64,000 bases of DNA from assembly GCA_041661005.1 (NCBI GenBank), contig JBAZVG010000001.1:543515-607514 (forward strand), in the 5' to 3' direction. A model generated the notes under the pieces. It was not told where the DNA came from, searched no databases, and saw only the letters and a program-made list of their open reading frames with translations. Made by a program: the position numbers and the translations under genes. Below, one piece after another: positions 6,301 to 22,519 of this stretch (positions are counted from its first letter, which is position 1; the number at the start of each line of letters is the position of its first letter). This DNA is from Minisyncoccota bacterium (GTDB taxonomy: Bacteria > Patescibacteriota > Minisyncoccia > Phycocordibacterales > UBA9973).

Positions 6301-6335
6301 TAGCGCTTTAGGCGCTCAGAGCGCCTAAAGCGCTA
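6301..6335. promoter_or_regulatory. Perfect 16-bp inverted repeat (stem-loop) between rpsJ and rplC
   Basis: TAGCGCTTTAGGCGCT-cag-AGCGCCTAAAGCGCTA. GC-rich in an AT-rich genome. Possible attenuator, processing site or protein-binding site. Confidence 0.5.
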
Positions 6336-6346
6336 TCTCCTCGGTT

Positions 6347-6784: not shown

Positions 6785-6823
6785 GGTACTTTTACTTTAT
6801 AACTTTGTGAACCTTTGAAGCTC

Positions 6824-8017: not shown

Positions 8018-8282
8018 ATTTTTATTCTTACCCCGCAAGAGCGAGGAGACGTTACTAACTAAAACTCAACATACAGGAGCCAGTTGCTGGGGCTTAGTTA
8101 CTAACTTGCCCCGCTATAAGCGTGGGCGATAATTAAACTTATAATAATGTGCCTCAAGAGCGTTTCCGCTATTAGGAGGCAAATTGGTAAATCAAAACAA
8201 AAACTGCAAAAAGTGCAGTTATTACCATACTAACAAATTAAAAAGTAATGTCAATATTATTTATACAAGTATAAAAACAAAA

Positions 8283-8325
8283 GAAAAAACTTCAAGGCCC
8301 TCCTCCTCGAAGTTTTTTTCTTTTG
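8283..8325. terminator. Bidirectional intrinsic terminator
   Basis: AAAAAACTTC...GAAGTTTTTTTCTTTTGTTTTTT: a hairpin flanked by A-tract and T-tract. Confidence 0.55.
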
Positions 8326-8337
8326 TTTTTTATAAGA

Positions 8338-8787
8338 TTAATTAACTTTTATTGGCTCACTAGATAGACTACATCCTGATTTAAAAACATAGCTATTTGA
8401 ACATGTAACTTGAATATACAAATCAGCTGAATTTTCTCCACTTAAAGGAACCCATGATTCTTGCTTATCGTTTGGAGTATTTGTCTCAATTGTTCTTACA
8501 AGCACAAATTGTCTTGGAGAATCTGAAACCTTTCTAATTAAATTTATATTAACTCCGGCATCAACTGGATAATTAGAAGTTTGCCAGTTAACAGTCTTTG
8601 TCCCAGCAAGTACAGCTACTGCCGGTGAAGTGACTAAAGTAACCGACTGGGTAGAAATTGTCGCTGGAGCAACTTCTTCAGGAGTTTTTTCAGTCTTGGA
8701 TGAAGTAAGAACCCAAAAAATAATACCTAAAACAATGATTACAAAAAGCGCGATATATTTATTTTTATTCATACTTTTATTATACAA
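8338..8787 (-). CDS. Hypothetical membrane-anchored or secreted protein
   Basis: 149-aa ORF with an N-terminal hydrophobic segment (IALFVIIVLGIIFWVL). No recognised domain. Confidence 0.5.
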   Translation of the reverse strand: MYNKSMNKNKYIALFVIIVLGIIFWVLTSSKTEKTPEEVAPATISTQSVTLVTSPAVAVLAGTKTVNWQTSNYPVDAGVNINLIRKVSDSPRQFVLVRTIETNTPNDKQESWVPLSGENSADLYIQVTCSNSYVFKSGCSLSSEPIKVN

Positions 8788-8885
8788 AGTTAATTAATAA
8801 ATTACCAACTCACTACCCCATAGTATATCACACTTATCATAAAAAGCAAGCTCCCCGTCCCCGAATTCTGACTCCAAGCGCAATG

Positions 8886-8912
8886 TATAGTTAAAAAAAG
8901 CCCCACAGACTG
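8886..8912 (-). terminator. Intrinsic terminator after pyrF
   Basis: Minus strand reads CCCCAGTCTGTGGGGC followed by TTTTTTT. Confidence 0.6.
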
Positions 8913-8914
8913 GG

Positions 8915-9733
8915 TTATTTATATTTATTTATCTCTTCCCAAAGTTTTCTTGCCTCATCTTTTGGATTTTCAGCAAAAATTATACTGCGAGCAGAATTTA
9001 TGATAAGTCCCAAACCCTCACTATTTAATCCAGCTTCAATAGCAGATCTTAAATCTCCCCCTTGAGCCCCGATTCCCGGGACAAGAAAAGTCATATCTGG
9101 AGCGAGATTGCGAATCTTTTTCATCTCTTCCGGATACGTCGCTCCCACTACCAGCATGCAATTTTTATTTTTATTCCATTCTTCCGAAACTTTCTCTGCG
9201 ACAATTTGCCAAAGCGGAACACTTTTGTTGGACACCGGGTGTCCAACATTTAGATCTTGAAACTCGGGAGCGCCCGGATTGGAAGTTCTACACAAAATAA
9301 TCGAACATTTGTCTTTTCTATCTAAAAACGGCTGTAAGGCCTCCTTCCCTAAATATGGATGCAAAGTGACAGCGTCAAAACCAAGCCAATCAAAAATCGA
9401 AGCTACATATCCGTTATTTGTATTTCCAATATCTGCCCGTTTGGCGTCTAAAATAGTGAAAATATCGGGATGATTGTCGATCAAATAATCCATTGTCATT
9501 TTCAATTCTTTTATCCCCTTGTCCCCACGAGCTTCATAAAAAGCGCTGTTTGGTTTATACGCAGATGCATATTCATGCGTTTCATTTATAATCCATTTAT
9601 TAAATTCAAACTGTGGGAATTCTAATTTCTTAAATTTTTCAGGAATTTTAGCAAAATCCGCATCCAACCCAACACAAAGAAGTGAATCAATTTTCTTGGC
9701 TCTTTCGTTGTATTTGTTTATTATCTGACTCAT
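8915..9733 (-). CDS. pyrF: Orotidine 5'-phosphate decarboxylase (long, type-2 form)
   Basis: 272 aa with LCVGLDAD...ILDAKRADIGNT... (the catalytic Asp-x-Lys-x-x-Asp motif of OMP decarboxylase). Last gene of the pyr operon. Confidence 0.85.
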   Translation of the reverse strand: MSQIINKYNERAKKIDSLLCVGLDADFAKIPEKFKKLEFPQFEFNKWIINETHEYASAYKPNSAFYEARGDKGIKELKMTMDYLIDNHPDIFTILDAKRADIGNTNNGYVASIFDWLGFDAVTLHPYLGKEALQPFLDRKDKCSIILCRTSNPGAPEFQDLNVGHPVSNKSVPLWQIVAEKVSEEWNKNKNCMLVVGATYPEEMKKIRNLAPDMTFLVPGIGAQGGDLRSAIEAGLNSEGLGLIINSARSIIFAENPKDEARKLWEEINKYK

Positions 9734-9734
9734 A

Positions 9735-10358
9735 TTATTTAATCACATGCTTCAAAATCCAATCTTCCACAATCTTTAATCCGTCTGTGTTCAAGATTTT
9801 TTGTCTTTTTGCTTCTTCCAAAATAACAGGAAAGGATGTGAGTGTATGCAAACGAACCTTGGCTTTTTCAAACCCTTCTCTTGCTTCATCAAAACCATAA
9901 CTTAGAATGACTAAACAGTCATCGACAATTGCACCTTCAGCCCTTAAAGCGGAAACACCCGCAAGAGAACTGCATCCAGCGCTAACGACATCCTCAATAA
10001 GCAAAACCCTTTTTCCAGCGACATCACCCCCTTCAATCTTTTTTTTAGTTCCATGATCCTTCACTTGTTTTCTCACAAAAACTGACGGCACTTTCAAAAA
10101 AAATCCCAACCCGGCGCTGTGTGGTATACCAGCCGCTTCCACTCCGGCAATAATATCAAAATTTATGTTATCTCTCTCGATAATTTCCGCAAAACTTCGG
10201 ATAACACTCTCCCACTCTTTAGGATGAAAGGGAAATTTTCTATTATCCACATAAACCGGAGATTTAATTCCCGACTTAAATGTTACCGGGTCGTTTACAA
10301 CAAAGCTCACTGCGCCAATTTTTATAAGCGCTTGGGCAATTTTTTGTTCTATATTCAT
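9735..10358 (-). CDS. pyrE: Orotate phosphoribosyltransferase
   Basis: 207 aa with the PRPP-binding motif KRVLLIEDVVSAG, type I PRTase. Confidence 0.9.
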   Translation of the reverse strand: MNIEQKIAQALIKIGAVSFVVNDPVTFKSGIKSPVYVDNRKFPFHPKEWESVIRSFAEIIERDNINFDIIAGVEAAGIPHSAGLGFFLKVPSVFVRKQVKDHGTKKKIEGGDVAGKRVLLIEDVVSAGCSSLAGVSALRAEGAIVDDCLVILSYGFDEAREGFEKAKVRLHTLTSFPVILEEAKRQKILNTDGLKIVEDWILKHVIK

Positions 10359-10390
10359 ATCTTTATCTTAGCTCTCCTTCGCTGAAAAAG

Positions 10391-11476
10391 CTACGAACGG
10401 GCAAGCCTTTCCTTTATCTCTCTTGCAAGATATGGATTCCACATTGCCCCTGTGGCAGACATTACAATATCCGCCCCAGCATTTCTGTATTCAAAAAAAT
10501 CTTCTGGCGTAGCGACTCCACCGACCCCAATAATAGTATAATTTAAACCCAATTCGTCGCGTAATTTTTTTAACCTTTTCGCCATATCAAGCCCCGCCCA
10601 TTTTATAGCATGCCCACAAACCCCGCTTCTTGATCTCGCATCGCCCGGCAGAGCCTGTTTGCCGTTTTCATCAACAATTTCCGCGGAAATCGTATTGATA
10701 GCGGAAATGCCTTGCACCAAAGATCCAACCTCTTTAATAAAACTTCGCAACTTTTCTTCATCTTGGAAGAATGAAATTTTAATAACAAGAGGGACGTCTT
10801 TTATTTCATCTTTTATAGCTCTTGCAACCTTGACGCTGCGCTCTGTATCGTAACAAAGTAAATTATTTGTTCCTTCGTTTGGGCAACTCAGATTTACCTC
10901 CATCACTTTTACGCCTGTATCCCTAAGCAATCGGGCCGTCAAAACAAAATCATTTATGTATTCTTCGGCGCTTTGTCCCTCCTTTTTTGTTCCCTGAAAA
11001 CTTCCTACCACGATCTGACCAAGGCGAGCATTTTTGACAACTCTTGCTAGATCTTTCTGCCAAAATTCTGGATCAGTTGACGGCACGCCAAAAGAATTGG
11101 TGATAGAAAGAGGTTCATGATAATTTCTGTTCGCCTCTAATTTACTTTCAGCTTTTTTAAAAGTTAAATCTCCATCAATCTTTACGGACAAAACATTCGG
11201 CCACTCGTGACAAGGATATTTACTGCTCCGCACCGTTTTATAAGTCACAATGTCAAAACCTTTATCTAACGCTGCCTGAACAAAGTTGCCATTGATAAGT
11301 GGACCAGCCGGAATGCCAAAAGGTGAATCTACTTTAAAACCAAAAAAATTATACTTGCCATTTTCAGTAAGGACTCCCCTTGCTGAAGTTGCTGAAATTG
11401 CAAAGGCGCCAAAAGGACCATCTTTAAAATTTTCCTCGTAGGATTTTTCTGGATCGTAAAATGGGAAGTGAGGCAT
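10391..11476 (-). CDS. pyrD: Dihydroorotate dehydrogenase
   Basis: 361 aa TIM-barrel flavoenzyme with FGIPAGPL and NLSCPN motifs. Confidence 0.85.
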   Translation of the reverse strand: MPHFPFYDPEKSYEENFKDGPFGAFAISATSARGVLTENGKYNFFGFKVDSPFGIPAGPLINGNFVQAALDKGFDIVTYKTVRSSKYPCHEWPNVLSVKIDGDLTFKKAESKLEANRNYHEPLSITNSFGVPSTDPEFWQKDLARVVKNARLGQIVVGSFQGTKKEGQSAEEYINDFVLTARLLRDTGVKVMEVNLSCPNEGTNNLLCYDTERSVKVARAIKDEIKDVPLVIKISFFQDEEKLRSFIKEVGSLVQGISAINTISAEIVDENGKQALPGDARSRSGVCGHAIKWAGLDMAKRLKKLRDELGLNYTIIGVGGVATPEDFFEYRNAGADIVMSATGAMWNPYLAREIKERLARS

Positions 11477-11481
11477 AGTTT

Positions 11482-12399
11482 CTATAAATTGAGACTAAAA
11501 AGTAATACCGCCATTCGAATGTATAAACCATTTTGTGCCTGACGAAAGTAGGCTGCGCGAGAATCTAGATCAATTGCTGAATCAACTTCATTTACCCTTG
11601 GTAAGGGATGCATGATGATCGCCTCTTTCTTTAATCTTTTTAAATGTTTTGTTTTTAGTAAAAAAGCATCTTTAACTTTATTGTAATCCTCAATATTTGA
11701 GAACCGTTCTTTCTGCACTCGTGTCATATACAAAACATCTATATCTGGTATTATTTTTTCTAGATTATCCATTTCTAAAAAAGAAACTTTTTTATTACGT
11801 AAATATTCTCGATATTCTTCTGGCAAAACTAATTCTTTCGGAGAAACAAAATAAAATTTATTGTCTGGATATAGCATCAAAAGCGGGACAAGCGAACGAA
11901 GCGTTCTGCTGTTTAACACATCACCCACAAAGGCAATGGAAATATTATCCAATCTTCCATGTTCTTTTTTTATAGTGTAAAGATCAAGAAATCCCTGGGT
12001 CGGATGCTGGTTAGCGCCGTCTCCAGCATTTATTATTGGCTTAGTTGAGACTTTCGAAGCAGTCTCCGCCGCTCCCATCTTCGGATGACGCATGACGATA
12101 AGGTCGGCGTAACAATTGAGCATTTTTGTCGTATCCTCAACCGTTTCACCTTTATAAGCAGAAGAACTGGAAGACGCGTTCTCAACAGAAATCACACTGG
12201 CTCCGAGTTTGATCGCCGCTGTTTCAAAAGACAATCGAGTGCGGGTGGATGGTTCAAAAAAAATAGAAGCTACAATTTTATTTTCTAGTTGTTTGCCATT
12301 TTTACCGCTTTTACAAAGCTTTTCCATCTTTGAAGCGACCGACAAAATCTTTTCAACATCTTTCTTCTCAAATTGTTTTGTATCCAAAATGTGTCGCAT
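11482..12399 (-). CDS. pyrB: Aspartate carbamoyltransferase catalytic subunit
   Basis: 305 aa with STRTR, HPTQ and HPLP motifs. Confidence 0.9.
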   Translation of the reverse strand: MRHILDTKQFEKKDVEKILSVASKMEKLCKSGKNGKQLENKIVASIFFEPSTRTRLSFETAAIKLGASVISVENASSSSSAYKGETVEDTTKMLNCYADLIVMRHPKMGAAETASKVSTKPIINAGDGANQHPTQGFLDLYTIKKEHGRLDNISIAFVGDVLNSRTLRSLVPLLMLYPDNKFYFVSPKELVLPEEYREYLRNKKVSFLEMDNLEKIIPDIDVLYMTRVQKERFSNIEDYNKVKDAFLLKTKHLKRLKKEAIIMHPLPRVNEVDSAIDLDSRAAYFRQAQNGLYIRMAVLLFSLNL

Positions 12400-12405
12400 A
12401 TAATT

Positions 12406-15400
12406 TTAATTATTGAGATACTCCCTATATGATTTAATTTCTAAATCCGAGATCACATAGCGCGCCAATGCTTTGATAAATGCTCGCGCCAGATGCAAAT
12501 CAGTAAATAAAGGAATTTGATTATCGACCGTAGCCCTTCTGATACGAAAACCATCCGTGATGGTTTTCGCCAAAATTCCACTTTCGTCCTCTTTATTTAA
12601 ATTTATCACAAAAGCCACTTGCTTGCTAAGAATTGCATCGAGAACATTCGGAGATTGCTCGGACGCTTTCCTGACAATTATACAATCTACATTCTTATTT
12701 TTCAAAAACTCTCCGGTCGTATCGGTAGCCAAAATCTTATAATCAAGTTCTATCAACATTCGCGTTGCTTCTAAAAATTTTGCCTTATTCAAGTCTCCTC
12801 CAAGGGAAAGAAGAACAGTTTTCCTATTGAAATCAAATTTGTTGGCGCTTAAAATCGACTTTAGCAAGGCTTCATCATAATCTTTGCCAAAACAAGCCAC
12901 TTCCCCAGTCGAAGACATTTCTACCCGCAAAATAGGATCCGCGCCTGAAAGTCTGGCAAATGAAAATTGTGGCGACTTCACTATTACATTCTCTGGATAT
13001 GTAAATTTATGCATCTTGGCCACGCCCAAAAATGCGTCCACTGCAACTTCAGAAAAATTAACATCCATAGCCTTTGATAACAATGGAAAAGTTCGACTAG
13101 CGCGTAGATTCACTTCGATCACAGATGGGTGATTATCTTTTACTAAAAATTGGATATTGAAAGGTCCGGTGATATTGAGTTCTTTGGCTATTTTTTTAGA
13201 AATTTCACGCAGTTGAAATTCAGTGGAAGCGTAGACGCGCTGAGTTGGAAAAACTATCGTAGCATCGCCTGAATGGACGCCAGCATTTTCCACATGTTCA
13301 GAAATTCCGTAAATCATAATTTCTCCCCCTTGCGCAACCGCATCAAATTCAAGCTCTTTGGCATGTTCTATATATTGAGAAATAGTAACTGGATATCCGG
13401 GAGAAAGTCTGGAGGCTTTCATAATAAAATCCCGCAATTGGCGCTTGTCATAACATACGCTCATAGCAGAACCGGAAAGCACATAAGAAGGTCGCACCAA
13501 AACCGGAAAACCTGTTTTGTCTGTAAATTTGAGAGCTTGAGACATGTTGGTAAAACTCTGCCATCTCGGCTGGGCAATTTGAAGCTTATCTAAAAGCGCT
13601 GAAAAAAGATTGCGATCCTCAGCTTGATTAATATCGAAAGCTTTAGTGCCTAGAATATGAAAACCTTCTTTGGAAAGTTTTTGAGCCAGATTGTTTGGAC
13701 GCTGTCCGCCCACGGAGATGACAAGCCCGTAAGCATTTTCAAATTCAAAAATATCAGCCACAGTTTCAAAAGACAAGTCTTCAAAGTAGAGACGGTCGGA
13801 CATGTCATAATCAGTGGAGACAGTTTCCGGATTGCAGTTTATGATTATAGATTTTTTCTGATGTCGTTTAAATGCCATCGCCGCGTGCACACAAGACCAG
13901 TCAAATTCAACGCTGGAACCTATATGATACGAACCGCTCCCGAGCACCAAAACGGCATCTTTGCCAAATGCGGAAACGTCATTATAATTTGCATGATAAG
14001 TGAGATAAAGATAATTAGTTTTCGCCGGAAATTCTCCAGCCAAAGTATCAATGGCCAGGACTCTTGGTAAAATATTCAGACTTTTTCTTAATTTTCTTAT
14101 TTCTAATTCCTCCTTTCCACAAAGCGCGCCTATTTTTTTGTCGGAAAAGCCGGCTTGCTTTAATTCTAAGACTTTTTCTCTATTTAATTTTTTATTTTTT
14201 GAAAAAGCTTTTTCCATACGAACTATGTTTTCCAATCTAAACAAGAACCACGGATCAATGCCTGTGATTTTATAGATCGAAGCCACAGATGCGCCTTTTT
14301 TCATGGTTTCAGCAATGGCAAATAATCTCTTTGGAGTCGGAATCGATAAAAATTTTTTTAATTCTTTTCCATTTTTGAAACCATTATCAGTCACCCCTCC
14401 CGCTAGTCCGGACTGCATGCGCACTGCTTTTTGGATAGCTTCTTCAAAACTTCGGCCAATAGCCATGACCTCTCCCACCGACTTCATTGCGCTACCAATT
14501 TTTTCTTCCGCGCCCTTAAATTTTTCCAAATCCCATCTGGGCATCTTTACGACTACATAATCGAGCGCCGGCTCAAAAAAACTCTGAGTAACTTTGGTTA
14601 TTTTATTTTTGATTTCTAGCAAGCTGTGTCCGAGCGCAAGTTTTGCCGCTACATACGCGAGCGGATAACCAGTTGCCTTTGAAGCTAGCGCGCTCGAACG
14701 GGAAAGCCGAGCGTTAACTTCGATAACAAAAAAATCTAGCCCCTCACCCCCTCCTCCCCCTCTCCCCGAAGGAGAGGGGGACGGATTTAAGGCATATTGC
14801 ACATTGCACTCTCCGACAATTTTTAGACTCTCAACTATTTTTATGCTTGCCTCTCGCAGTCCGTGATATTCACTATTTGATAAAGTCTGACTCGGTGCCA
14901 CCACAATAGAGTCACCAGTATGGATTCCCAGCGGATCAAAATTTTCCATGTTGCATACTGTAACAATATTTCCAAATCTGTCTCGGACTACTTCATACTC
15001 TATTTCCTTAAAATGATGCAAATATTTTTCTATTAGAACTTGGGGGCTGACAGCTAACGCTCCTTCTACTATTTCCCTTAGATCTCGTTCGTTTTTCGCA
15101 ACACCTGATTTCTGCCCACCCAATGTGAAAGCTGCCCGCACCATTAGCGGGAATCCGATTTCTTTCGCAATTTTTTTCGCCTCTTTCAAATTCGTGGCAG
15201 AGCCAGAAGGTGGCACCGGAATTCCGATTTTTTTTAAATGATCGGCGAAAAACTGACGATCTTCGGTCAATTCAATAGAAGAAATAGGAGAACCAAGAAC
15301 TTGCACATTATATTTTTTCAAAATTCCTTTCTTCTCCAAACTAAGTCCGCAATTTAGCGCTGTCTGTCCGCCAAAAGACAGCATGATTCCGTCCGGGTGT

Positions 15401-15648
15401 TCTTTGATTATGACTTTCTCAACAAAATAATCATTGATTGGCAAAAAATAAACTTCATCGGCTAAGGTTTTGGAAGTTTGAAAAGTTGCAATATTTGGAT
15501 TCACCAAAATGACTTTAATTTTTTCTTCTTTCAGGGCTTTGATGGCCTGACTGCCACTATAATCAAATTCCCCCGCTTCACCTATTTTCAACGCTCCGGA
15601 ACCCAAGACCAATATTTTTCTGAATTTATTTTTATTAATTTTTGTCAT
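12406..15648 (-). CDS. carB: Carbamoyl-phosphate synthase large subunit
   Basis: 1080 aa with duplicated ATP-grasp halves and an MGS-like C-terminus. Carries an in-frame low-complexity insertion (SPSPSPSGRGGGGGEG) encoded by a GC-rich palindrome at ~14748-14790. Confidence 0.95.
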   Translation of the reverse strand: MTKINKNKFRKILVLGSGALKIGEAGEFDYSGSQAIKALKEEKIKVILVNPNIATFQTSKTLADEVYFLPINDYFVEKVIIKEHPDGIMLSFGGQTALNCGLSLEKKGILKKYNVQVLGSPISSIELTEDRQFFADHLKKIGIPVPPSGSATNLKEAKKIAKEIGFPLMVRAAFTLGGQKSGVAKNERDLREIVEGALAVSPQVLIEKYLHHFKEIEYEVVRDRFGNIVTVCNMENFDPLGIHTGDSIVVAPSQTLSNSEYHGLREASIKIVESLKIVGECNVQYALNPSPSPSGRGGGGGEGLDFFVIEVNARLSRSSALASKATGYPLAYVAAKLALGHSLLEIKNKITKVTQSFFEPALDYVVVKMPRWDLEKFKGAEEKIGSAMKSVGEVMAIGRSFEEAIQKAVRMQSGLAGGVTDNGFKNGKELKKFLSIPTPKRLFAIAETMKKGASVASIYKITGIDPWFLFRLENIVRMEKAFSKNKKLNREKVLELKQAGFSDKKIGALCGKEELEIRKLRKSLNILPRVLAIDTLAGEFPAKTNYLYLTYHANYNDVSAFGKDAVLVLGSGSYHIGSSVEFDWSCVHAAMAFKRHQKKSIIINCNPETVSTDYDMSDRLYFEDLSFETVADIFEFENAYGLVISVGGQRPNNLAQKLSKEGFHILGTKAFDINQAEDRNLFSALLDKLQIAQPRWQSFTNMSQALKFTDKTGFPVLVRPSYVLSGSAMSVCYDKRQLRDFIMKASRLSPGYPVTISQYIEHAKELEFDAVAQGGEIMIYGISEHVENAGVHSGDATIVFPTQRVYASTEFQLREISKKIAKELNITGPFNIQFLVKDNHPSVIEVNLRASRTFPLLSKAMDVNFSEVAVDAFLGVAKMHKFTYPENVIVKSPQFSFARLSGADPILRVEMSSTGEVACFGKDYDEALLKSILSANKFDFNRKTVLLSLGGDLNKAKFLEATRMLIELDYKILATDTTGEFLKNKNVDCIIVRKASEQSPNVLDAILSKQVAFVINLNKEDESGILAKTITDGFRIRRATVDNQIPLFTDLHLARAFIKALARYVISDLEIKSYREYLNN

Positions 15649-16726
15649 ATTCTTTATTTGTTTTTATCCCCGCCTTTTTTAAGAAAAAATCAAATATCCA
15701 GCCCGTATCAAGGGGTCCCGGAGAACTCTCTGGATGAAATTGCACCGACATGAAAGGCAAGCTTTTGTGAATAATTCCTTCATTGGTGCCATCATTCGCA
15801 TTGTGAAACCATTCTTGGAAACCTTCTGGGATTTTCTTGATCGCAAAACCATGATTTTGAGTTGAAAGATATGCTCGCTTGGCGCCGATTTCCATAACTG
15901 GCTGATTTTGACTGCGATGCCCAAATTTAAGCTTGTAAGTGGTGCCACCAGACGCCAATGCCAAGATTTGATTGCCCAAGCAAATGCCAAAAATCGGAAT
16001 TTTTCTATCAATAATTTTCTTTACATTTTTTATAGTTGCCTGCGCCATAGTCGGGTCACCCGGACCGCTGGAAATAACTACAGCATCAAAAACGCTATCA
16101 AGTTTGGTGACATCTGTATCCCAAGGCACCACAACAACTTTCAATCCCCTCCAAACGAGACTGCGAATTATGTTTAGCTTCACTCCGCAATCTATCAATA
16201 CAATCGTATTTTCACCAACACCGCTCGTCCATATTTTTTTTGTGGAAACTTCAGCCACCAGATTTCTCAAGTTCGGATCTTCGAATGAGACAATCTCATT
16301 TTTATTTTTTTCCTGAAACTGAATTTTCCCTAGCATCACACCTTCGGTCCGCAGTTTCTTGGTCAATTCACGAGTATCTTTAACCTCTAGCGCTGGAATA
16401 TTTTGTTCCTTGAGCCATTTGGATAGAGTCATCGTCGAAGAATGATGAGACGGCGTATCAATATAATTACATACTATGAGACCAGATATTTGTATCTTGC
16501 CGGACTCCCACAATTCCTTTTTAGGAACACCATAATTCCCAATAAGCGGATAAGTCATTATCAAAATCTGACCAGCAAAAGAAGGATCGGTAATGGCCTC
16601 CGGATAACCCACCATGCCAGTCGCAAAAACAACTTCGCCAGAAATAGATTTTTCCGCACCAAAACTTTTACCCTCATAAGAGCTTCCGTCTTTTAATACT
16701 AATTGGGCTGTTTTATTTGTTTTCAT
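15635..16726 (-). CDS. carA: Carbamoyl-phosphate synthase small (glutaminase) subunit
   Basis: 363 aa, class I glutamine amidotransferase (GICLGNQ...HGFA). Overlaps carB by 14 nt. Confidence 0.9.
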   Translation of the reverse strand: MKTNKTAQLVLKDGSSYEGKSFGAEKSISGEVVFATGMVGYPEAITDPSFAGQILIMTYPLIGNYGVPKKELWESGKIQISGLIVCNYIDTPSHHSSTMTLSKWLKEQNIPALEVKDTRELTKKLRTEGVMLGKIQFQEKNKNEIVSFEDPNLRNLVAEVSTKKIWTSGVGENTIVLIDCGVKLNIIRSLVWRGLKVVVVPWDTDVTKLDSVFDAVVISSGPGDPTMAQATIKNVKKIIDRKIPIFGICLGNQILALASGGTTYKLKFGHRSQNQPVMEIGAKRAYLSTQNHGFAIKKIPEGFQEWFHNANDGTNEGIIHKSLPFMSVQFHPESSPGPLDTGWIFDFFLKKAGIKTNKEYDKN

Positions 16727-17942
16727 ATACTTTACCTTTAATAACAGTCATAACTACACTACCCGGAAAGGTCACATTTAAAAATGGCGACTGGCGCGAT
16801 TTGGTTTTTAGTTCTTTTTCCATTATTTTTACTTGCTTATCCATATCCAAGACAGTAAAAGAACCAACATATCCTTTTTCTATTCTGCCGTATTTATCTG
16901 GGGTAAATTTATTGATAAAATTCCCAGGATTGTAACTGCAAACCCTTGCGATGTTTTCGGGAATAAAATTGTGTTCTTTCATCAACCATGCAACAAATGG
17001 ACCGTAAGTATCGAGATGCGTGAGCCCAGAAATGCCTTTTTCTTTTTCCTCAATAGTGTGCGGAGCATGATCTGTCGCCAGATAATCTATGTCACCATTC
17101 TTAAGCGCGGCAATCATGCTGAGACGATTACTCTTTGTCTGACGTATAGGCGGATTCACTTGAAAGTTTCTCTTGTTCTTGGGAAGCATGGTCTCGTCAA
17201 AAAATAAGTGATGAGGCGTCACCTCGACAGTCACATTTATTCCACGTTTTTTTGCATTTATTATTTTATTTATCCCCTCTAAGGTAGAACAATGGCAAAT
17301 CTTCCCAGTGAGGTTATATTTTTCAATGAGTTTCAAGGCAAAATCCACGGCGGAAATTTCGGCCTCAGGTGGACGCCTTGCTTCATGCACATCTCTGTCT
17401 GCATTTTCTTTTAAAATTTCAGGATCTTCACAATGAAAACTTACGTGCTGATTTTTATATTTCTCTAAAGCCTTTTCCAACTCTTCATTCGAAGTAAAAA
17501 ATAAATCTCCAACAGATTGTCCCATAAAAACTTTGTAAGGAACTATTTTGGAGAGGGGTTTTGTGCTTGGCCCAATGCCAGCATAAAGAATTATGGTAAC
17601 AGGAGACTTTTCTGTTAAATCACTTTTTGTTTTAAAACTTGCATCATCTATCGGTGGCACCGGATTATTCGGCATCTCTGCAAAAGCGACCACTCCACCA
17701 TTTATCGCCGCCTCGCCTGCGCTCTTGAAATCTTCCTTATAATCCTGTGTATGACCTGCATCTTCCCTCGCATGCACATGCAAATCTATAAATCCCGGGA
17801 AAATTAATTCATCTTTAAAAATAAAATCCGCAGTCCCAGTAGGTTCGCTAACTTTTAAAATCAATCCGCTTGCTTCATCTATCTCGATTCTACCTCGCGA
17901 GACTTTATCCTTATCCACAATGTTGCCTTCAATGCTAATCAT
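16713..17942 (-). CDS. pyrC: Dihydroorotase
   Basis: 409 aa amidohydrolase with DLHVHAR... metal-binding motif. First gene of the pyr operon. Overlaps carA by 14 nt. Confidence 0.85.
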   Translation of the reverse strand: MISIEGNIVDKDKVSRGRIEIDEASGLILKVSEPTGTADFIFKDELIFPGFIDLHVHAREDAGHTQDYKEDFKSAGEAAINGGVVAFAEMPNNPVPPIDDASFKTKSDLTEKSPVTIILYAGIGPSTKPLSKIVPYKVFMGQSVGDLFFTSNEELEKALEKYKNQHVSFHCEDPEILKENADRDVHEARRPPEAEISAVDFALKLIEKYNLTGKICHCSTLEGINKIINAKKRGINVTVEVTPHHLFFDETMLPKNKRNFQVNPPIRQTKSNRLSMIAALKNGDIDYLATDHAPHTIEEKEKGISGLTHLDTYGPFVAWLMKEHNFIPENIARVCSYNPGNFINKFTPDKYGRIEKGYVGSFTVLDMDKQVKIMEKELKTKSRQSPFLNVTFPGSVVMTVIKGKVYENK

Positions 17943-18075
17943 ATATTTGGGCCAGCCTCGCCGCCCGCTTCACCGAATCGAGGCGAGAGTCTAGGCGGGC
18001 AAAAAAATAACCCCGTGATAGGGGCTTTTATAAAAGAAGAGGTGACAGAAATACAAAAAAGTTTTGGGGTATTGC
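17943..18075 (-). promoter_or_regulatory. GC-rich structured 5' leader of the pyr operon (candidate attenuator or translational switch)
   Basis: Minus strand reads AAAAGCCCCUAUCACGGGGUUAUUUUUUU (hairpin plus U-tract), then GCCCGCC..CUCGCC..GCGGGC..GGCGAGG. These are two mutually exclusive helices, and the second overlaps the presumed SD (GGCGAGG) 16 nt before the ATG. Confidence 0.4.
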
Positions 18076-18369
18076 AAGTATAAAAATTTTTTTTCATGTC
18101 ACGCATATTGAGAGAAATGATATCATCTCCTAGAAAAGAAGCAAGTTTCTCGACAGTGGAGTAAGTGGACAAACTTTTTTGTTTAATTTAGAAAAATAAG
18201 AAAGTGCGCCAAGCTCGGAAGCTCGACGCACGATGCTGGCTCGGGGTAATCTTACGGACGAACGCAAGATCACCTTGATATAGGAAAACCTCCTTAAAAG
18301 CCAGCACACAAAGTGTATCATATCCAATGACCTTATCAACTACTTCCTCGCCGTAATAATAGGAAACAT

Positions 18370-18627
18370 TTATTTATAAATATCATGACTGCCTATTGAA
18401 TGAAAATAGACAATATTGTTTTTCCCGAATTCGCATATTATTCTGTAGGAAAAAGAAATGGAAAAAGCGGAACAACCTTTTAGTTTGCCTGAAAGTTTAT
18501 GGGTTTTTAATTTAGCATCAGAAGGATTTCTTTTAAATAGTGCTTCCTTTTTTACAGCTTCTTTCTTAATGTCTAGTGGAAGTTTCTTGAAAAGACGAAT
18601 AAATTCAGCTGTATAAATAATATCCAT
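18370..18627 (-). CDS. Type II toxin, RelE/ParE superfamily
   Basis: 85 aa with ...CSAFSISFSYRIICEFGKNNIVYFHSIGSHDIYK, which matches the RelE/ParE C-terminal pattern. Sits immediately downstream of the RHH antitoxin gene. Confidence 0.75.
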   Translation of the reverse strand: MDIIYTAEFIRLFKKLPLDIKKEAVKKEALFKRNPSDAKLKTHKLSGKLKGCSAFSISFSYRIICEFGKNNIVYFHSIGSHDIYK

Positions 18628-18632
18628 GTTAA

Positions 18633-18848
18633 TTACATAAGATCTTTAAGAGATCGCAATCTTTTGAACTTTCCTTGAGCAAAATCTCTCTGACTTCTCA
18701 TGACAGATTGATACAGCTGTTCTTCTTCCCAGGCTCTCACAGCATCTCTAAAAAATTCAGAGACAGAAGCATAACTACCCTCTCTTACAGCCAAGTCCAC
18801 ACTGCGCTTGAGCGAAACTGGCATTGAAATGTTTAATGTTGTTCTCAT
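18633..18848 (-). CDS. Type II antitoxin, ribbon-helix-helix (ParD/CopG-like)
   Basis: Internal start MRTTLNISMPVSLKRSVDLAVREGSYASVSEFFRDAVRAWEE, an RHH fold signature. 5-nt spacing to the toxin gene. Confidence 0.7.
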   Translation of the reverse strand: MRTTLNISMPVSLKRSVDLAVREGSYASVSEFFRDAVRAWEEEQLYQSVMRSQRDFAQGKFKRLRSLKDLM

Positions 18849-18965
18849 TCGGGAAGTGTAGCACACTGTGCTACAGGGTGTCAAATATCTCGAATCCAGC
18901 AAGGACTCCCCTTGCTGAACATTACTGGGGCTTTTGCAAAAGAAGAGGTGGATAACTTTATTTAT

Positions 18966-19346
18966 CTAGTTTTTGATTCTTAACGTAAGAAAACCCCATG
19001 ATTCAAGTAATGCCCACAATATTGATATCACCCAAAAAACAATTAACGAAGAATGTACTGTGATTTCTGAAAAAAGTATATAAATTATAGTAAATCCAAA
19101 AACACCCGTAATCACATCCGTTACTTTATTCCATTTTTCTTCATGAAGACCATTGATAATTTCTATTATTTCCCATGCAAGCATGATCATGAAAGAAATA
19201 AAAAATCCAAAATAAAAATCAATGTTATAGAAATAAATAACTGCACCAAGGAGTCCACCCGCAAGGGTGTGGTTTACAGACCAGAGATCTAAGAATTTTC
19301 CATTTTTCCAAACTTTAACCGACCAGCGTTTAAAGTCCTGTTTCAT
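18966..19346 (-). CDS. Hypothetical integral membrane protein
   Basis: 126 aa with three or four hydrophobic helices. Begins 6 nt after the fusA stop. Confidence 0.5.
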   Translation of the reverse strand: MKQDFKRWSVKVWKNGKFLDLWSVNHTLAGGLLGAVIYFYNIDFYFGFFISFMIMLAWEIIEIINGLHEEKWNKVTDVITGVFGFTIIYILFSEITVHSSLIVFWVISILWALLESWGFLTLRIKN

Positions 19347-19351: not shown

Positions 19352-21511
19352 TTATTTCCTCGCAGCAATGATAGTCTCCGCGACATTATTAGGCACAATG
19401 TCATAGCGGAAGAATTCCATAGTGAAAGATGCTCGGCCTTCGGTCATCGAACGCAGTCCTGTCATATAACCAAACATTTCGGAAAGAGGCACTATCGCTT
19501 TGATAACTTTATTCATTCCCCTGTCTTCCATGCCCTCAATCAACGCGCGTTTTGAAGAAAGATTGCCTGTTACGTCTCCCATAAATTTGTCTGGGGTGAC
19601 AACTTCCACTTTCATCATAGGCTCGAGAATAACGGGGTTCGCCCTTTTGCAGGCATCCTGCACCGCCATGCTTGAGGCAATCTTGAAAGCCATTTCGTTC
19701 GAGTCAACTTCATGATAACTTCCATCCCAAAGCTCCACCGACACGTTGACGATTTTAAATCCAGCCAAAACTCCGCGATCCAAGCCCTCTTTGAATCCTT
19801 TTTCACAAGGCGCAATATATTCCTGTGGAATTACTCCTCCTTTAATGGTGTTCACAAACTCAAAACCCGGAGACCTCTTGGTGTTTTTCGGCAAGTCTTC
19901 CAGCTCTTCTTTTGAAAGCATTTCCATGGGCTTCACTTTGATCTTGACATGTCCGTAGTTTCCACGTCCACCAGATTGTTTGATATATTTTCCTTCAGCT
20001 TCGGCCTGACCGTTGATTGTCTCACGATATGCTACCTGCGGTTTACCCACATTCGCTTCGACAGTAAATTCGCGTTTCATTCTATCCACAATAATTTCCA
20101 AATGCAATTCTCCCATGCCGGCGATGATAGTCTCCCCCGTTTCTTGATCAGTGCTAACTTTAAAAGTAGGATCTTCTTGAGCAAGACGATTAAGAGCCAT
20201 ACCCATTTTTTCCTGGTCAGCTTTTGTTTTTGGTTCAATGCGGAGTGAGATAACTGGTTCTGGAAAAACAATCCTATCTAAGATAATTGGATTTTCTTCA
20301 TCGCAAAGAGTATCTGAAGTAATAGTGTCTTTGAGTCCAACTGCTGCCGCGATTTCTCCAGCAAAAACTTGCTTCACTTCTTCTCGGTCATTCGCATGCA
20401 TTCGAAGAATTCGGCCGATACGTTCTTTGTTGCGCGTGCGTGGATTGTAAACATAACTGCCAGCCGAAAGAGTTCCAGAGTAAACACGGAAGAAGATAAG
20501 TTGACCGACGAATGGGTCAGTCGCAACCTTGAAAGCAAGAGCCGCAAAAGGTTCTGTGTCTGAAGCGTGTCTCTCAATAGCAACATCATCATTGTTTGGA
20601 TCAATACCACTGATTGCAGCGATGTCTGTAGGAGACGGCAAGTAGTCAATAACTGCATCCAGCACAAGCTGAACACCTTTGTTTTTTAAAGCTGAACCAG
20701 CAAATACTGGAAAGATCATATTAGCAATAACAGCCTTGCGCAGAGTCTTCTTCAAAACATCGAAATTCGGAATCACCCCCTCCAAGTATTCAGTCATCAT
20801 GACATCATCCGTCTCAACTATTTTTTCAATAAGATCTGAATGATATTTTTCCGCATCAGCTTTCAAATTCTCTGGCAAAGTGTCTAAGTCTTTTTCAATA
20901 ACTTTATTTCCCATTTCTCCTTCAAAGTAATAAGCCTTCATGCGGAGAAGATCGATAACTCCCTCAAATTTATCTTCGAGGCCAATAGGAATCTGCACTC
21001 GCACAGCTTTTTTACTCAACCTGTCTAAAATTGTTGAAAAGGAATGTTCAAAAGAAGCGCCTGTTCGGTCTAATTTGTTTATAAAACAAATACGAGGAAC
21101 TTTCGCTTCGTCAGCATAGCGCCAATTAGTCTCAGATTGAGGCTCTACACCAGCCACACCGTCGAAAACAACGACAGCGCCGTCTAGAACGCGAAGAGAA
21201 CGTTTTACTTCAACCGTAAAATCAATGTGTCCAGGAGTATCAATAATATTAAAACGATTTGTCTTTGTCTTGTCAGTGGGAGCATAGGTGGGCGTCCAGA
21301 AACATGTGACAGCCGCAGAAGTAATGGTGATTCCACGCTCTCGTTCTTGCTCCATCCAGTCAGTCGTGGTCTCACCTTCATGAACTTCACCGATCTTGTG
21401 TTTTTTTCCAGTATAATAAAGCACACGTTCTGTGGTCGTCGTTTTACCCGCATCAATGTGCGCGATAATTCCAAAATTTCTAACTTTTTCTAAAGGATAG
21501 TCTCGTTCCAT
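19352..21511 (-). CDS. fusA: Elongation factor G
   Basis: 719 aa with [18 protein letters not shown]..., full EF-G domain order. Confidence 0.95.
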
Positions 21512-21517
21512 AAATTT

Positions 21518-21988: not shown

Positions 21989-22024
21989 TTTTTTACTTTA
22001 TAACCTTATGAACTTTATAACTTT

Positions 22025-22441: not shown

Positions 22442-22519
22442 ACAAGTATGTCTTTTGTAAAATAAAAGAGTCCGAAGACTCAGCCCATAATTTACTATAA
22501 ACAACTCTAAAATGCAAGC

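Follow-up and report, generated by a model that had tools for sequence, protein, structure and literature searches.

The regulatory region reported here resembles the attenuator of pyrBI, the mechanism of which has been described (PMC4824070, PMC5021804). With respect to the pathway, Parcubacteria that make pyrimidines de novo have been published before, and a 2017 paper presents a nearly complete pathway in one Parcubacterium (PMC5220378). The present locus lies in a stretch of DNA of 64 kb (hereafter the window) and has a block of about 11 kb inserted between the translation genes fusA and tuf. The block is likely to be a self-contained UMP operon that was relocated within the Paceibacterota, not imported, and that carries a pyrBI-like attenuator; this position, where the rpsL-rpsG-fusA and tuf-S10 transcription units meet, is characteristic of one Nomurabacteria-like subclade. 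The new result is the predicted pyrL-like leader-peptide attenuator upstream of pyrC, which was previously unannotated.

Organization of the locus

Every gene of the locus is on the minus strand, and the order is rpsL-rpsG-fusA, u126, an RHH antitoxin and a RelE toxin, pyrC-carA-carB-pyrB-pyrD-pyrE-pyrF, u149, and tuf-rpsJ. The upstream transcription unit bordering the slot (19352..22504) consists of rpsL (22504..22025; Pfam Ribosom_S12_S23), rpsG (21988..21518; Pfam Ribosomal_S7), and fusA (21511..19352) with the full Pfam domain set of EF-G. The first genes of the downstream transcription unit (6347..8038) are tuf (8038..6824), for which Pfam and the sequence indicate a likely ATG at 8017 and a product of 397 aa, and rpsJ (6784..6347; Pfam). 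The gene calls bear out the separation of fusA from tuf reported in the first-pass annotation. Its gene list also stands, but its order required correction: in the direction of transcription, the membrane protein gene and the toxin-antitoxin (TA) pair precede the pyr operon and the gene of the secreted protein follows it. The fusA-pyr-tuf arrangement is not an assembly artefact because the identical layout is present in independent assemblies (NCBI, JGI, ENA, and Logan). The host, suspected earlier to be CPR-like, is a CPR MAG: its proteins match exactly those of an NCBI MAG named Candidatus Paceibacterota (phylum Minisyncoccota; 813-kb contig), and every close CarB or EF-G relative that has a name belongs to the Nomurabacteria, Paceibacteria, Parcubacteria or Patescibacteria. 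The EF-G identity to relatives is 87–95%.

At the tuf side of the junction, a terminator-like hairpin of 14 pairs followed by a T-run (8284..8318), supported by prediction and inverted repeats, would end the pyr/u149 unit. A promoter scan placed the tuf promoter at 8254..8227 (TTGACA, 16 nt, and TAGTAT with an upstream TG). Together with a structured leader of approximately 200 nt, which includes a hairpin at 8220..8202 and, further downstream, a stem with apparent covariation, it forms an element spanning 8018..8254. The leader had no match in Rfam. All nine of the loci compared retain the promoter and leader, irrespective of the genes that precede them. Since tuf has its own promoter at the junction, an insertion need not disturb the expression of the translation genes.

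Genes of the pyr operon

All seven pyr genes were assigned, in agreement with the complete UMP pathway proposed earlier. The first gene, pyrC (17942..16713; Pfam Amidohydro_1), encodes a type I dihydroorotase of 409 aa, whose score against TIGR00857 pyrC_multi (277.6 bits) is slightly under the cut-off of 279. The glutamine-dependent carbamoyl-phosphate synthase is encoded by carA (16726..15635; TIGR01368, 436.7 bits) and carB (15648..12406; all CPSase_L domains and the MGS domain), which together span 12406..16726. The 14-nt overlaps noted in the first-pass annotation are present at both pyrC/carA (16726–16713) and carA/carB (15648–15635). The catalytic chain of aspartate carbamoyltransferase is encoded by pyrB (12399..11482; TIGR00670, 355 bits, cut-off 237), and pyrI is absent from the operon.

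The earlier assignment of pyrD (11476..10391, 361 aa) holds in that Pfam DHO_dh (85 bits, cut-off 27) and a catalytic motif identify a dihydroorotate dehydrogenase; it is corrected in that the protein is a divergent class-1-like form that scored under the cut-off of every NCBIfam DHODH model. Its best PDB match is the PyrD subunit of Lactococcus lactis DHODH B (1ep1_A, E = 3e-10), with which the retained class-1 catalytic cysteine motif NLSCPN aligns, and no pyrK adjoins pyrD. The operon ends with pyrE (10358..9735; TIGR00336, 120.8 bits, cut-off 106.8) and pyrF (9733..8915), a type-2 OMP decarboxylase (TIGR02127 pyrF_sub2, 224 bits, cut-off 110.6).

Variable genes at the edges of the block

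The remaining genes, namely the TA pair, u126, and u149, are strain-variable passengers at the two edges of the slot. u126 (19346..18966) encodes a 126-aa membrane protein with four predicted transmembrane segments and had no Pfam or NCBIfam match. Only four homologues (36–66% identity) were found among 5.8 billion proteins, and the nearest relative, L088, has a different 68-aa hydrophobic ORF in its place. The 149-aa ORF u149 (8787..8338; 144 aa from the NCBI start at 8772) has an N-terminal hydrophobic signal or anchor and no family match in Pfam or NCBIfam. At 90% identity it clusters with no other protein, and other genes or nothing occupy its position in relatives.

The RHH (ParD-like) antitoxin (ORF 18902..18633; likely ATG at 18848, 71 aa) was recognized by Pfam RHH_1 (24.3 bits, cut-off 20.5) and scored under the cut-off for ParD TIGR02606 (25.2 bits, cut-off 46.2). 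The promoter scan and sequence show promoter-like boxes TTGACA (18884..18879) and TACACT (18860..18855), and the ATG starts at the 7th nucleotide past the -10 box, a leaderless geometry. The toxin (18627..18370, 85 aa) starts 5 nt past the antitoxin and belongs to the RelE/StbE family (TIGR02385, 32.3 bits, cut-off 27.9; NCBI name RelE/StbE), with a weak match to Pfam YafQ_toxin. The TA module had been taken as a marker of acquired DNA. The pair itself varies, however: it is shared only by L088 (antitoxin 98% identical), while HicAB, a DGR, an unrecognised gene or nothing is found at its position in the other fusA/pyr/tuf loci. In L157, a homologous TA pair (41% and 28% identity, the toxin being at 41%) lies between rpsG and fusA.

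Distribution in relatives and origin of the block

The fusA/pyr/tuf layout was found in five further lineages, L082, L083 (= L093), L084, L088, and L112 (= L121), with CarB 81–84% identical to that of the window. Approximately 32 related loci have pyrC-carA-carB-pyrB between clpP and tig, the full address being rny-clpP / pyr / tig-hppA-nusA. With about 45 related loci carrying the pyr cluster, in addition to the 2017 report, the pathway is not unusual in this lineage, contrary to the first-pass annotation.

The block might be read, in line with the first-pass annotation, as a recently acquired foreign island in the str operon stabilised by the TA module. A normally contiguous gene pair is interrupted, a type II TA pair is present, and the G+C content of the block (0.34–0.41 versus 0.40–0.44 in the flanks) is slightly lower toward the edges (0.34 at 8–9 kb and 0.37 at 18–19 kb). 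The comparative data contradict this reading and make it highly improbable. The pyr part is at the same place in the five other lineages, and the nearest homologues of CarB, in more than 120 clusters of at least 75% identity, belong to the same CPR lineage wherever named. Furthermore, the promoter and leader are the same as those of the clpP/tig copies, variation in the TA pair does not follow the operon, and neither an integrase nor a tRNA nor direct repeats at the flanks were found. The first-pass annotation had also considered an arrangement shared across the lineage; it is shared in the subclade but probably derived relative to the wider clpP/tig lineage.

In a neighbor-joining (NJ) tree of PyrC, CarA, and CarB (1801 columns), the fusA/tuf set was monophyletic in 100/100 bootstraps, while a group of all clpP/tig loci excluding it appeared in 0/100. 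The fusA/tuf set joined the main clpP/tig group, with the clpP/tig locus L002 outside, in 74/100. This nesting of a monophyletic fusA/tuf group among clpP/tig loci indicates relocation inside the lineage; we infer the direction and number of the relocation events. Taking along its own promoter and leader, the pyrC-carA-carB-pyrB module would have moved from the rny-clpP/tig-hppA-nusA address and joined pyrD-pyrE-pyrF at fusA/tuf. A PyrD tree favoured neither order of arrival of the two modules at this junction. In L086, all seven genes are at clpP/tig in the order DEF-C-carAB-B, which suggests two independently mobile modules.

The fusA/tuf junction is a general slot for variable cargo in this lineage. 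L156, L157, and L158 have unrelated genes there and nothing related to pyr, L160 has pyrDEF only, and L159 has a lyase, an amidohydrolase, pyrD, a 239-aa ORF, and pyrF; EF-G of both L160 and L159 is 92% identical to that of the window. These partial sets, and the interleaving of loci with and without the insertion in the translation-gene tree, would fit an opposite polarity in which fusA/pyr/tuf is ancestral, clpP/tig is derived, and the junctions of L160 and L156–L158 reflect later losses. This is unlikely given the paraphyly of the clpP/tig loci around a tight fusA/tuf clade, their diversity and number relative to six fusA/tuf loci, and the different gene order of L086.

An NJ tree of M50, rpsL, rpsG, and fusA (200 bootstraps; WIN is the window locus) separated {WIN, L121, L156, L157} from {L082, L083, L084, L158} in 194/200, and the insertion-bearing loci did not form one group. 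Within the fusA/tuf clade, PyrC (178/200) and CarA (180/200) favoured WIN with L082, while the translation genes favoured WIN with L121 (200/200). WIN and L121 are 95% identical over M50–fusA, and the excess similarity ends at pyrC. The conflict between the pyr and translation-gene trees indicates that a single vertical relocation is too simple and has to be combined with loss, or with exchange by recombination. A cassette that formed once and then spread or was exchanged among related lineages, by homologous recombination in the highly conserved fusA and tuf sequences on either side, could account for the monophyly of the pyr proteins in hosts that are not one group and for the end of the excess similarity at pyrC. 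Replacements in situ within the cassette, where pyrF is of type 2 or type 1 and L083 has a xenologous PyrD, point in the same direction. However, the trees are NJ trees on few taxa, the EF-G identities of 87–92% are near saturation, and the pattern is also explained if the L156/L157 lineage lost the cassette, so that we hold such exchange only as a tentative possibility. It would add to the relocation and is compatible with it.

Promoter, leader ORF, and putative attenuator upstream of pyrC

A predicted terminator-like hairpin with a 12-bp stem and a T-run (18204..18231) follows the toxin gene and would shield the pyr promoter from transcription that arrives from upstream. The pyr promoter (18117..18144) has a -35 box TTGCTT (18144..18139), a 16-nt spacer, and an extended -10 box TGaTATCAT (18125..18117). 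The pattern cTTGCaT, ~17 nt, TGnTAnnAT, 8 nt, ATG is kept in approximately 30 leaders at both genomic addresses. In the window, translation gives an unannotated leader-peptide ORF of 55 codons (17939..18106; MRDMKKNFYTCNTPKLFCISVTSSFIKAPITGLFFCPPRLSPRFGEAGGEAGPNI*), which reads through the attenuator and whose TGA stop overlaps the pyrC ATG (ATGA). NCBI annotates no protein between pyrC and RelE, as their accession numbers are consecutive.

The putative attenuator (18001..18026) comprises the hairpin AGCCCC-UAUCAC-GGGGUU (18026..18009), present in the MFE fold, and an A+U7 run on its 3' side (18008..18001). The window contains a single copy of the motif CCCC-N3-8-GGGGNTATTTTT (0 expected). Among the 160 loci examined, it was found in pyr-cluster loci only, mostly directly upstream of pyrC; the exceptions are L002 (between pyrC and carA) and L118 (~230 nt past pyrF). 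Fourteen clpP/tig loci have the promoter and lack the hairpin, and RNAalifold on the leaders found no conserved antiterminator; both observations speak against attenuation. A GC-rich palindromic insertion (17950..18000) separates the U-run from the pyrC ATG and keeps the leader ORF in frame, and L090, L124/126, L127, and L112/121 contain analogous in-frame insertions.

The leader frame is open through the hairpin and U-run in 28 of 30 leaders, a count that does not represent 28 independent trials because the leaders are related sequences, compared with 7/30 and 3/30 for the other frames and a mean of 3.6/30 (maximum 10) in shuffled leaders. The ORF is 35–55 codons long across loci with a near-leaderless start geometry, and in nearly all leaders the stop lies between -8 and +13 nt relative to the pyrC ATG. 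The T content is 0.20 over the first 40 nt and 0.41 over the 40 nt that precede the hairpin. The hairpin might instead work without leader translation, as a plain insulator terminator or as an attenuator that depends on a PyrR-like protein or a small-molecule-sensing RNA, with the open frame as a by-product of composition. In line with this, stop codons are less probable in the T-poor start, the peptide shows little sequence conservation, and two leaders (L108 and L112/121) end at or before the hairpin. Nevertheless, the conserved-ATG frame stays open despite shifts between frame and hairpin and insertions of up to ~50 nt, and its stop stays close to the pyrC ATG. In the clpP/tig loci the upstream gene is divergent, leaving nothing upstream to terminate; an Rfam scan gave no match, including PyrR, even at E ≤ 10, and RNAalifold gave no conserved alternative fold. 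A leader-independent hairpin thus appears doubtful, and the architecture, which is common to both addresses, is, as read from the sequence, that of a pyrBI/pyrL attenuator.

Comparison with the pyrL attenuator

By analogy with pyrBI, UTP sensing, ribosome coupling, and a leaderless start may be proposed for this leader. The conserved extended -10 promoter would start a nearly leaderless mRNA, the first ORF of which would be the leader peptide, running through the U-rich stretch, the terminator hairpin, and U7 to the pyrC start codon. At low UTP, RNA polymerase would stall in the U-rich stretch, and the ribosome translating the leader would catch up and block the hairpin, so that pyrC is transcribed; at high UTP, the polymerase would outrun the ribosome and terminate. 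The overlap of the leader stop with the pyrC start may couple translation of pyrC to that of the leader. pyrL of Escherichia coli has 44 codons and an attenuator of the sequence AGCCCCTCAATCGAGGGGCTTTTTTTTGCCC, and its stop precedes the pyrB ATG by 3 nt. The leader of 35–55 codons described here, likewise with a hairpin and a U-run, has its stop at the ATG of pyrC.

Host lineage and gene content of the block

The first-pass annotation had suggested a CPR-like organism, and database matches bore this out. CarB, S7, RelE and the two proteins encoded at the block edges, u126 (a 126-aa membrane protein) and u149 (a 149-aa secreted protein), are exact matches to an NCBI MAG of Candidatus Paceibacterota bacterium (locus tags WC735_03105–03155 on an 813-kb contig). 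In the NCBI taxonomy, Candidatus Paceibacterota is the phylum Minisyncoccota, i.e. CPR/Patescibacteria. For both CarB and EF-G, every named close relative belongs to the Nomurabacteria, Paceibacteria, Parcubacteria or Patescibacteria. The arrangement of the ribosomal protein genes points the same way: L1 does not follow L11, and L10-L12 is located at another site without rpoBC. Specifically, at 29870–30860 (minus strand), in place of rplA, the genes downstream of nusG-rplK encode a Vut_1 transporter, a CofE-like F420-0:gamma-glutamyl ligase homologue and an ATP-grasp protein. At 36697–37658 (minus strand), 7 kb from nusG-rplK, rplJ-rplL is followed by a gene for a 1257-aa PG_binding protein and not by rpoBC. 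L1 is likewise missing beside L11 in three of the related loci (L156, L158 and L160).

The whole region is encoded on the minus strand. Pfam and NCBIfam assignments confirmed that the block lies between fusA and tuf, as originally observed. On its upstream side are rpsL (22504..22025), rpsG (21988..21518) and fusA (21511..19352). The block itself begins with u126 (19346..18966; hydrophobic, without family match), an RHH antitoxin ORF (18902..18633) and a RelE/StbE toxin gene (18627..18370). The pyr operon consists of pyrC (17942..16713), carA (16726..15635), carB (15648..12406), pyrB (12399..11482), pyrD (11476..10391; above cut-off in Pfam only), pyrE (10358..9735) and pyrF (9733..8915). It is followed by u149 (8787..8338; N-terminal hydrophobic anchor, without family match), tuf (8038..6824) and rpsJ (6784..6347). 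Both 14-nt overlaps reported previously, pyrC/carA and carA/carB, are exact. An assembly chimera was considered and rejected because the fusA-pyr-tuf layout recurs in independent assemblies.

The claim of a complete UMP pathway was upheld, as the seven pyr genes with Pfam/NCBIfam matches encode all six activities: carbamoyl-phosphate synthetase (CarA and CarB), ATCase, DHOase, DHODH, OPRTase and OMP decarboxylase. PyrC is 1.5 bits short of the TIGR00857 cut-off. The weak point of this predicted pathway is PyrD. It is a DHO_dh member at 85 bits (Pfam), and it scores approximately 70 bits against the NCBIfam DHODH models of all classes, whose cut-offs are 200–500 (e.g. 270 for an equivalog). Its class-1 catalytic cysteine motif, NLSCPN, aligns with that of L. 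lactis DHODH B, and the protein is approximately 50 aa longer than class-1 enzymes. No pyrK adjoins pyrD, and a PyrK partner was not found nearby. PyrD is probably a divergent DHODH of an organism presumed to lack quinones. None of pyrH, ndk, pyrG and prs is present within the 64-kb window.

Upstream of rpsL, the window encodes an unusually long 449-aa ThyX-domain protein (25138–26487, plus strand) where relatives have ThyA-DHFR. In L082, L083, L156 and L158–L160, ThyA-DHFR lies between MazG-like/dCMP-deaminase genes and a DEAD helicase upstream of rpsL. The arrangement suggests that ThyX has displaced ThyA/DHFR in situ within a conserved pyrimidine-deoxynucleotide neighbourhood. At 46428–47200 (minus strand), adjoining tRNA-Leu(GAG) and upstream of rplS, a free-standing ORF of 225 aa matches LAGLIDADG_3 weakly.

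Two genomic addresses of the pyr genes

The proposal that the block was acquired as foreign DNA was contradicted by relatives carrying the operon at the same site, by closest homologues that, where named, all belong to the same lineage and by the absence of mobility hallmarks. Genomic addresses were assigned from the neighbourhoods of relatives, a metagenome scan with PyrC and marker classification. The pyr genes are also present at the fusA|tuf junction (address A) in L082, L083/93, L084, L088 and L112/121, in the order rpsL-rpsG-fusA, pyrC-carA-carB-pyrB-pyrD-pyrE-pyrF, tuf-rpsJ. In the synteny check suggested by the first-pass annotation, the pyr layout is conserved in five further lineages; u126, the toxin–antitoxin (TA) pair and u149, and only these, vary. 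CarB is 81–84% identical to that of the window in the four address-A loci that hold it. L088 ends inside pyrC, and its PyrC is 92% identical. At a second address (address B), represented by ~32 loci, pyrC-carA-carB-pyrB is flanked by divergent rny-clpP and convergent tig-hppA-nusA, and CarB is 74–79% identical to that of the window.

More than 120 clusters at the 90% identity level hold CarB proteins 75–86% identical to that of the window, and every named cluster among the top 120 (75–100% identity) belongs to this lineage. Among the matches listed, the next tier is at ~62% or less (Roizmanbacteria), followed by one at 52–57%. Among the matches listed in the contig scan with CarB, L002 and L003 were the two close relatives; others matched through universally conserved peptides. 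A neighbor-joining tree of PyrC, CarA and CarB was constructed from 35 taxa and 1801 columns with Roizmanbacteria as the outgroup. In this tree, address A was monophyletic in 100/100 bootstraps, address B excluding A was monophyletic in 0/100, and L002, an address-B locus, fell outside A and the main B group in 74/100. The most parsimonious reading of the pyr protein tree is that address B is older and that address A arose within the lineage.

Hallmarks of mobility were not observed around the block. There is no integrase or transposase gene in the block, no tRNA near it and no pair of direct repeats flanking it, only two short internal repeats. Its G+C content is 0.34–0.41 vs 0.40–0.44 in the flanks. 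An empty clpP|tig donor site was also sought without success: rny is present at 58284..59816, and clpP, tig, hppA and nusA are absent within the 64 kb. A PyrD tree intended to order the arrival of pyrDEF relative to that of pyrC-pyrB was uninformative. The seven-gene cluster can be divided into two modules because loci carrying only pyrDEF exist, and the order pyrD-E-F-pyrC-carA-carB-pyrB of L086 at address B fits this division. Taken together, these comparisons indicate that a self-regulated pyr operon was relocated and assembled within the lineage at an operon boundary that permits insertion, and that the passengers at the edges of the block vary between strains.

Edge passengers and gene replacement within the cassette

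Every lineage has its own gene content between fusA and the pyr promoter. The window has u126 and the RHH/RelE pair, and L088 shares this TA pair (98% and 93% identity) together with a 68-aa hydrophobic ORF. A 133-aa membrane protein with HicB/HicA is found in L112/121, a 108-aa protein in L082 and nothing in L083. In L084, this interval (3799–7491) contains a diversity-generating retroelement, followed by HicB/HicA, and a 228-aa protein. The retroelement comprises bAvd, a reverse transcriptase and two ORFs of 250 and 94 aa that share 37 aa at 73% identity (VR/TR-like). On the pyrF–tuf side, u149 in the window corresponds to a response regulator and an Xre-type antitoxin fragment in L082, a 115-aa protein in L083, nothing in L084 and a large secreted protein in L121. 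The 2.2 kb after pyrF in L121 had been a candidate ORF-free stretch but contains this long secreted-protein gene, which runs past the locus end.

The TA module had been put forward as a marker of an acquired operon. Since the edge content varies by lineage and the pair itself is replaced by other genes or by nothing, the TA pair is the mobile part and does not mark acquisition of the operon. The toxin scores 32.3 bits against RelE/StbE TIGR02385 (cut-off 27.9). The antitoxin scores 24.3 against RHH_1 (Pfam cut-off 20.5) and 25.2 against ParD TIGR02606, below its cut-off of 46.2. The two genes are separated by 5 nt. The likely antitoxin ATG (18848) begins at the 7th nt past the -10 box of the TA promoter, the same geometry as in the pyr leader. 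In L157, three genes between rpsG and fusA (8069–9899) encode a ParD-like/RelE-like pair and a 433-aa fn3/PG_binding protein. This pair is homologous to that of the window (RelE-like 41%, ParD-like 28% identity), and the same TA family occupies different str-region gaps of related genomes.

The flanks and the pyr genes at fusA|tuf (the cassette) group the loci differently. The translation genes unite the window with L121 (200/200; EF-G 95% identity), and the excess similarity of this pair ends at the fusA end. PyrC and CarA unite the window with L082 (178 and 180 of 200, respectively). In a tree of M50, rpsL, rpsG and fusA, cassette-bearing and cassette-free loci are interleaved, with the window, L121, L156 and L157 separated from the rest in 194/200. 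Two types of pyrF are present: type 2 (269–272 aa) in the window, L084 and L121, and type 1 (224–225 aa) in L082 and L083. PyrD of L083 shares only 57% identity and clusters with distant sequences, and PyrE in L082, L083, L084 and L121 ranges from 54% identity to undetectable similarity relative to that of the window. These patterns indicate that genes within the cassette (pyrF, pyrD and pyrE) are replaced in situ. The uneven distribution would reflect either loss of the cassette in some lineages or its exchange via the conserved flanks.

Two short near-exact direct repeats in the window may be recombination scars. The first (18927–18950 and 18021–18044; 24 nt, 22/24 identical) places a copy of the pyr leader segment entering the attenuator hairpin 15 nt past the u126 stop. 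The second (18897–18919 and 11365–11387) is a palindrome of 23 nt that lies immediately 5' of the TA promoter and matches a pyrD coding segment at 22 of 23 positions. The DNA homology between the window and L088 starts exactly at 18919.

The fusA–tuf junction and the tuf leader

Relatives for a survey of the junction were chosen by EF-G similarity (88–92% identity). In the relatives examined, fusA and tuf never directly adjoin. The junction contains a gene for a 129-aa protein on the opposite strand in L156, a sigma70_r4 protein in L157 and a 386-aa protein, a thioredoxin and an 88-aa protein in L158. In L159 it contains a Lyase_1 protein, a 327-aa amidohydrolase, pyrD, a 239-aa ORF and pyrF, and in L160 only pyrD-pyrE-pyrF, starting 27 nt past fusA. 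Whatever lies upstream, a strong tuf promoter (TTGACA, 16–17 nt, TGnTAnnAT; 8254..8227, minus strand, in the window) and a leader of approximately 200 nt (8220..about 8018, minus strand) are conserved in all nine loci compared. Because tuf has its own conserved promoter and leader, the junction is a boundary of two transcription units, and for this reason cargo is tolerated there.

In the window (8220..8202), L082–L084 and L156–L160, the tuf promoter is followed by a terminator-like hairpin that is conserved, AACTGCACTTTTTGCAGTT, with a T-run after it. A stem further 3' in the leader appears by eye to covary (AGCA..TGCT, AGCG..CGTT and AGTG..CACT). A search of Rfam at E <= 10 gave only chance-level matches for the tuf leader. 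The structured tuf leader may serve in autoregulation of the tuf-S10 unit. Within the S10 operon, the rplB|rpsS junction also has a variable gap: ~370 nt with two GC-rich hairpins in the window (3480–3848), small ORFs in L082 and L083, and 2.2 kb in L157.

The pyr leader: promoter, leader ORF and predicted attenuator

The 428-nt gap between relE and pyrC contains the control elements of the operon, all on the minus strand. A terminator-like hairpin after relE (18231..18204) is followed by the pyr promoter (TTGCTT, 16 nt, TGaTATCAT; 18144..18117) and a leader ORF of 55 codons (18106..17939), whose ATG at 18106 is 10 nt past the -10 box and whose TGA stop overlaps the pyrC ATG (ATGA). Between the leader ATG and the attenuator hairpin is a U-rich stretch. 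The hairpin (AGCCCC-UAUCAC-GGGGUU; 18026..18009) is followed by A and U7, and a GC-rich palindrome (18000..17950) lies between the U-run and pyrC. No protein is annotated in the leader region by NCBI. The hairpin motif occurs once in the window, with 0 copies expected, and among the 160 loci it occurs only in pyr-cluster loci, mostly directly 5' of pyrC.

Some 30 non-redundant loci have the promoter box, ATG, U-rich stretch and hairpin ahead of pyrC. Because these elements are the same at both addresses, the relocated module brought its control region with it. In 28/30 leaders, no stop codon interrupts the frame of the conserved ATG up to and across the hairpin and U-run, compared with 7/30 and 3/30 for the other two frames, and 1000 composition-preserving shuffles gave a mean of 3.6/30 and a maximum of 10. 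The frame is kept open despite differences in hairpin phase between leaders (read as GVIFL, GLFF or GYFF), and insertions of up to ~50 nt between the U-run and pyrC stay in frame. In nearly all leaders, the stop is located -8 to +13 nt from the pyrC ATG. T makes up 0.41 of the 40 nt preceding the hairpin vs 0.20 of the first 40 nt, and T4–T6 runs are present; by composition, this is a candidate U-rich pause region just 5' of the terminator.

RNAalifold on 29 leaders gave the terminator stem only, and a conserved antiterminator was not found. Long-range A-rich/U-rich pairings appeared in single-sequence folds at positions that are not conserved. At the gathering threshold, Rfam matched only tRNAs in the window, and at E <= 10 the pyr leader (17900–18400) had chance-level matches with no pyrimidine-leader family. 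PyrR-mediated attenuation was not supported, as neither search of this interval gave a match for it and there is no pyrR-like gene in the block.

Fourteen address-B loci have the promoter and a mini-ORF of 9–13 codons, without the hairpin. In about a dozen short-leader loci of this kind (L085, L091, L092, L094, L098, L101, L102, L111, L114, L120, L144 and L149), the mini-ORF (M[CY]xIxLCLx) extends 13 nt into pyrC. The distribution indicates that part of the lineage has lost the attenuator or never acquired it.

Small GC-rich palindromes (GCCyGCC...GGCrGGC) are present at equivalent sites of AT-rich leaders in the window, L083, L084, L090, L112/121, L124, L127 and L160. Those between the attenuator U-run and pyrC are always in frame with the leader ORF, and others are found in the tuf leader (within 8100–8190 in the window). 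A scan of the window for a family of such palindromes yielded six perfect hairpins and no repeat family.

Discussion

The block had been flagged in part because a complete UMP pathway seemed unusual for CPR. It is less remarkable than that: the DNA is not foreign, and de novo pyrimidine synthesis is a common capacity of this Paceibacteria lineage and has already been published for a Parcubacterium. The locus is of interest as a clear operon relocation and assembly in a reduced-genome lineage, in which two pyr modules appear to have been joined at a translation-unit boundary and the pyrC–pyrB module to have brought its own promoter and attenuator. The range of cargo at fusA|tuf (TA pairs, a diversity-generating retroelement, thioredoxin, a sigma-like protein and pyr genes) matters for synteny-based annotation and may matter for binning based on ribosomal markers. 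The unannotated pyrL-like leader-peptide attenuator is the reason why the locus merits follow-up. If it works as inferred, it would offer a handle on regulation, transcription–translation coupling and leaderless translation in organisms not yet grown alone, and the leader is short enough for testing in vitro or in a surrogate host. It would also imply tight transcription–translation coupling in these minimal cells and a compact cis-regulatory unit that moved with the operon between genomic addresses.

A near-complete de novo pyrimidine pathway was described in a Parcubacterium (OD1) genome of the same superphylum, with the same metabolic capacity as the window (Castelle et al. 2017, PMC5220378); in the passages found by term search, that paper mentions neither genomic address nor regulation. 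IMP synthesis has been noted in Paceibacteria (PMC9166423). A full-text literature search gave no paper joining leader peptides, attenuation and Patescibacteria. Compared with the canonical str/S10 region (rpsL-rpsG-fusA-tuf, rpsJ and onward), the order of translation genes on both sides of the block is canonical, whereas fusA and tuf belong to separate units in this CPR lineage, with variable cargo between them in every relative examined. The predicted TA pair resembles type II RelE/StbE systems with RHH (ParD/CopG-like) antitoxins in having the antitoxin first and the toxin 5 nt on (71 and 85 aa). It differs in that the antitoxin is below the cut-off of the ParD model and its mRNA appears leaderless.

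Gram-positive pyr operons (pyrR-pyrP-pyrB-pyrC-carA-carB-pyrK-pyrD-pyrF-pyrE), which are controlled by PyrR attenuation, are likewise single packed operons with overlapping genes and a terminator-bearing leader. The operon described here has another gene order and lacks pyrR, pyrP and pyrK, and its leader has a single attenuator spanned by a leader peptide, with no PyrR-binding RNA detected by Rfam.

The CPR leader closely resembles that of pyrBI/pyrL in E. coli and Salmonella, where UTP-dependent pausing lets the ribosome reach the polymerase and suppress the terminator (PMC4824070, PMC5021804). Translation of the 44-codon pyrL of E. coli passes through AGCCCCTCAATCGAGGGGCTTTTTTTTGCCC and ends 3 nt short of pyrB; the leader ORFs here have 35–55 codons. 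Both precede a pyrimidine biosynthesis operon, run through a U-rich stretch and an intrinsic terminator, and stop at or beside the ATG of the first structural gene. The hairpins are near-identical (AGCCCC-loop-GGGGC, U8 and GCCC in E. coli; AGCCCC-loop-GGGGUU, A, U7 and GCCC in the window). The differences are the phylum, the first gene (pyrC instead of pyrB), the overlap of the leader stop with the pyrC start instead of a 3-nt gap, and the absence of room for a Shine-Dalgarno sequence, which E. coli pyrL has (GGAGG). As the ATG is 8–10 nt past the -10 box, leaving no such room, the CPR leader mRNA is probably leaderless. In the proposed mechanism, a near-leaderless leader peptide would be translated through the intrinsic terminator and the ribosome would then be handed to pyrC; UTP sensing and ribosome coupling are inferred by analogy with pyrBI. 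We consider the chances evenly balanced that Paceibacteria regulate pyrimidine synthesis by such a convergent, translation-coupled, probably UTP-sensing pyrL-like attenuator, with a near-leaderless peptide that passes the ribosome to pyrC. Homology to enterobacterial pyrL was not found, either in the peptides compared by eye or by Rfam (E <= 10) over the leader; peptide similarity is limited to the translated hairpin (GAFFCP in E. coli, GLFFCP in the window). The resemblance is probably convergent. Since the peptides are unrelated beyond the hairpin and Rfam gave no match, our claim is that the CPR leader would work like pyrL, not that it is a pyrL homologue.
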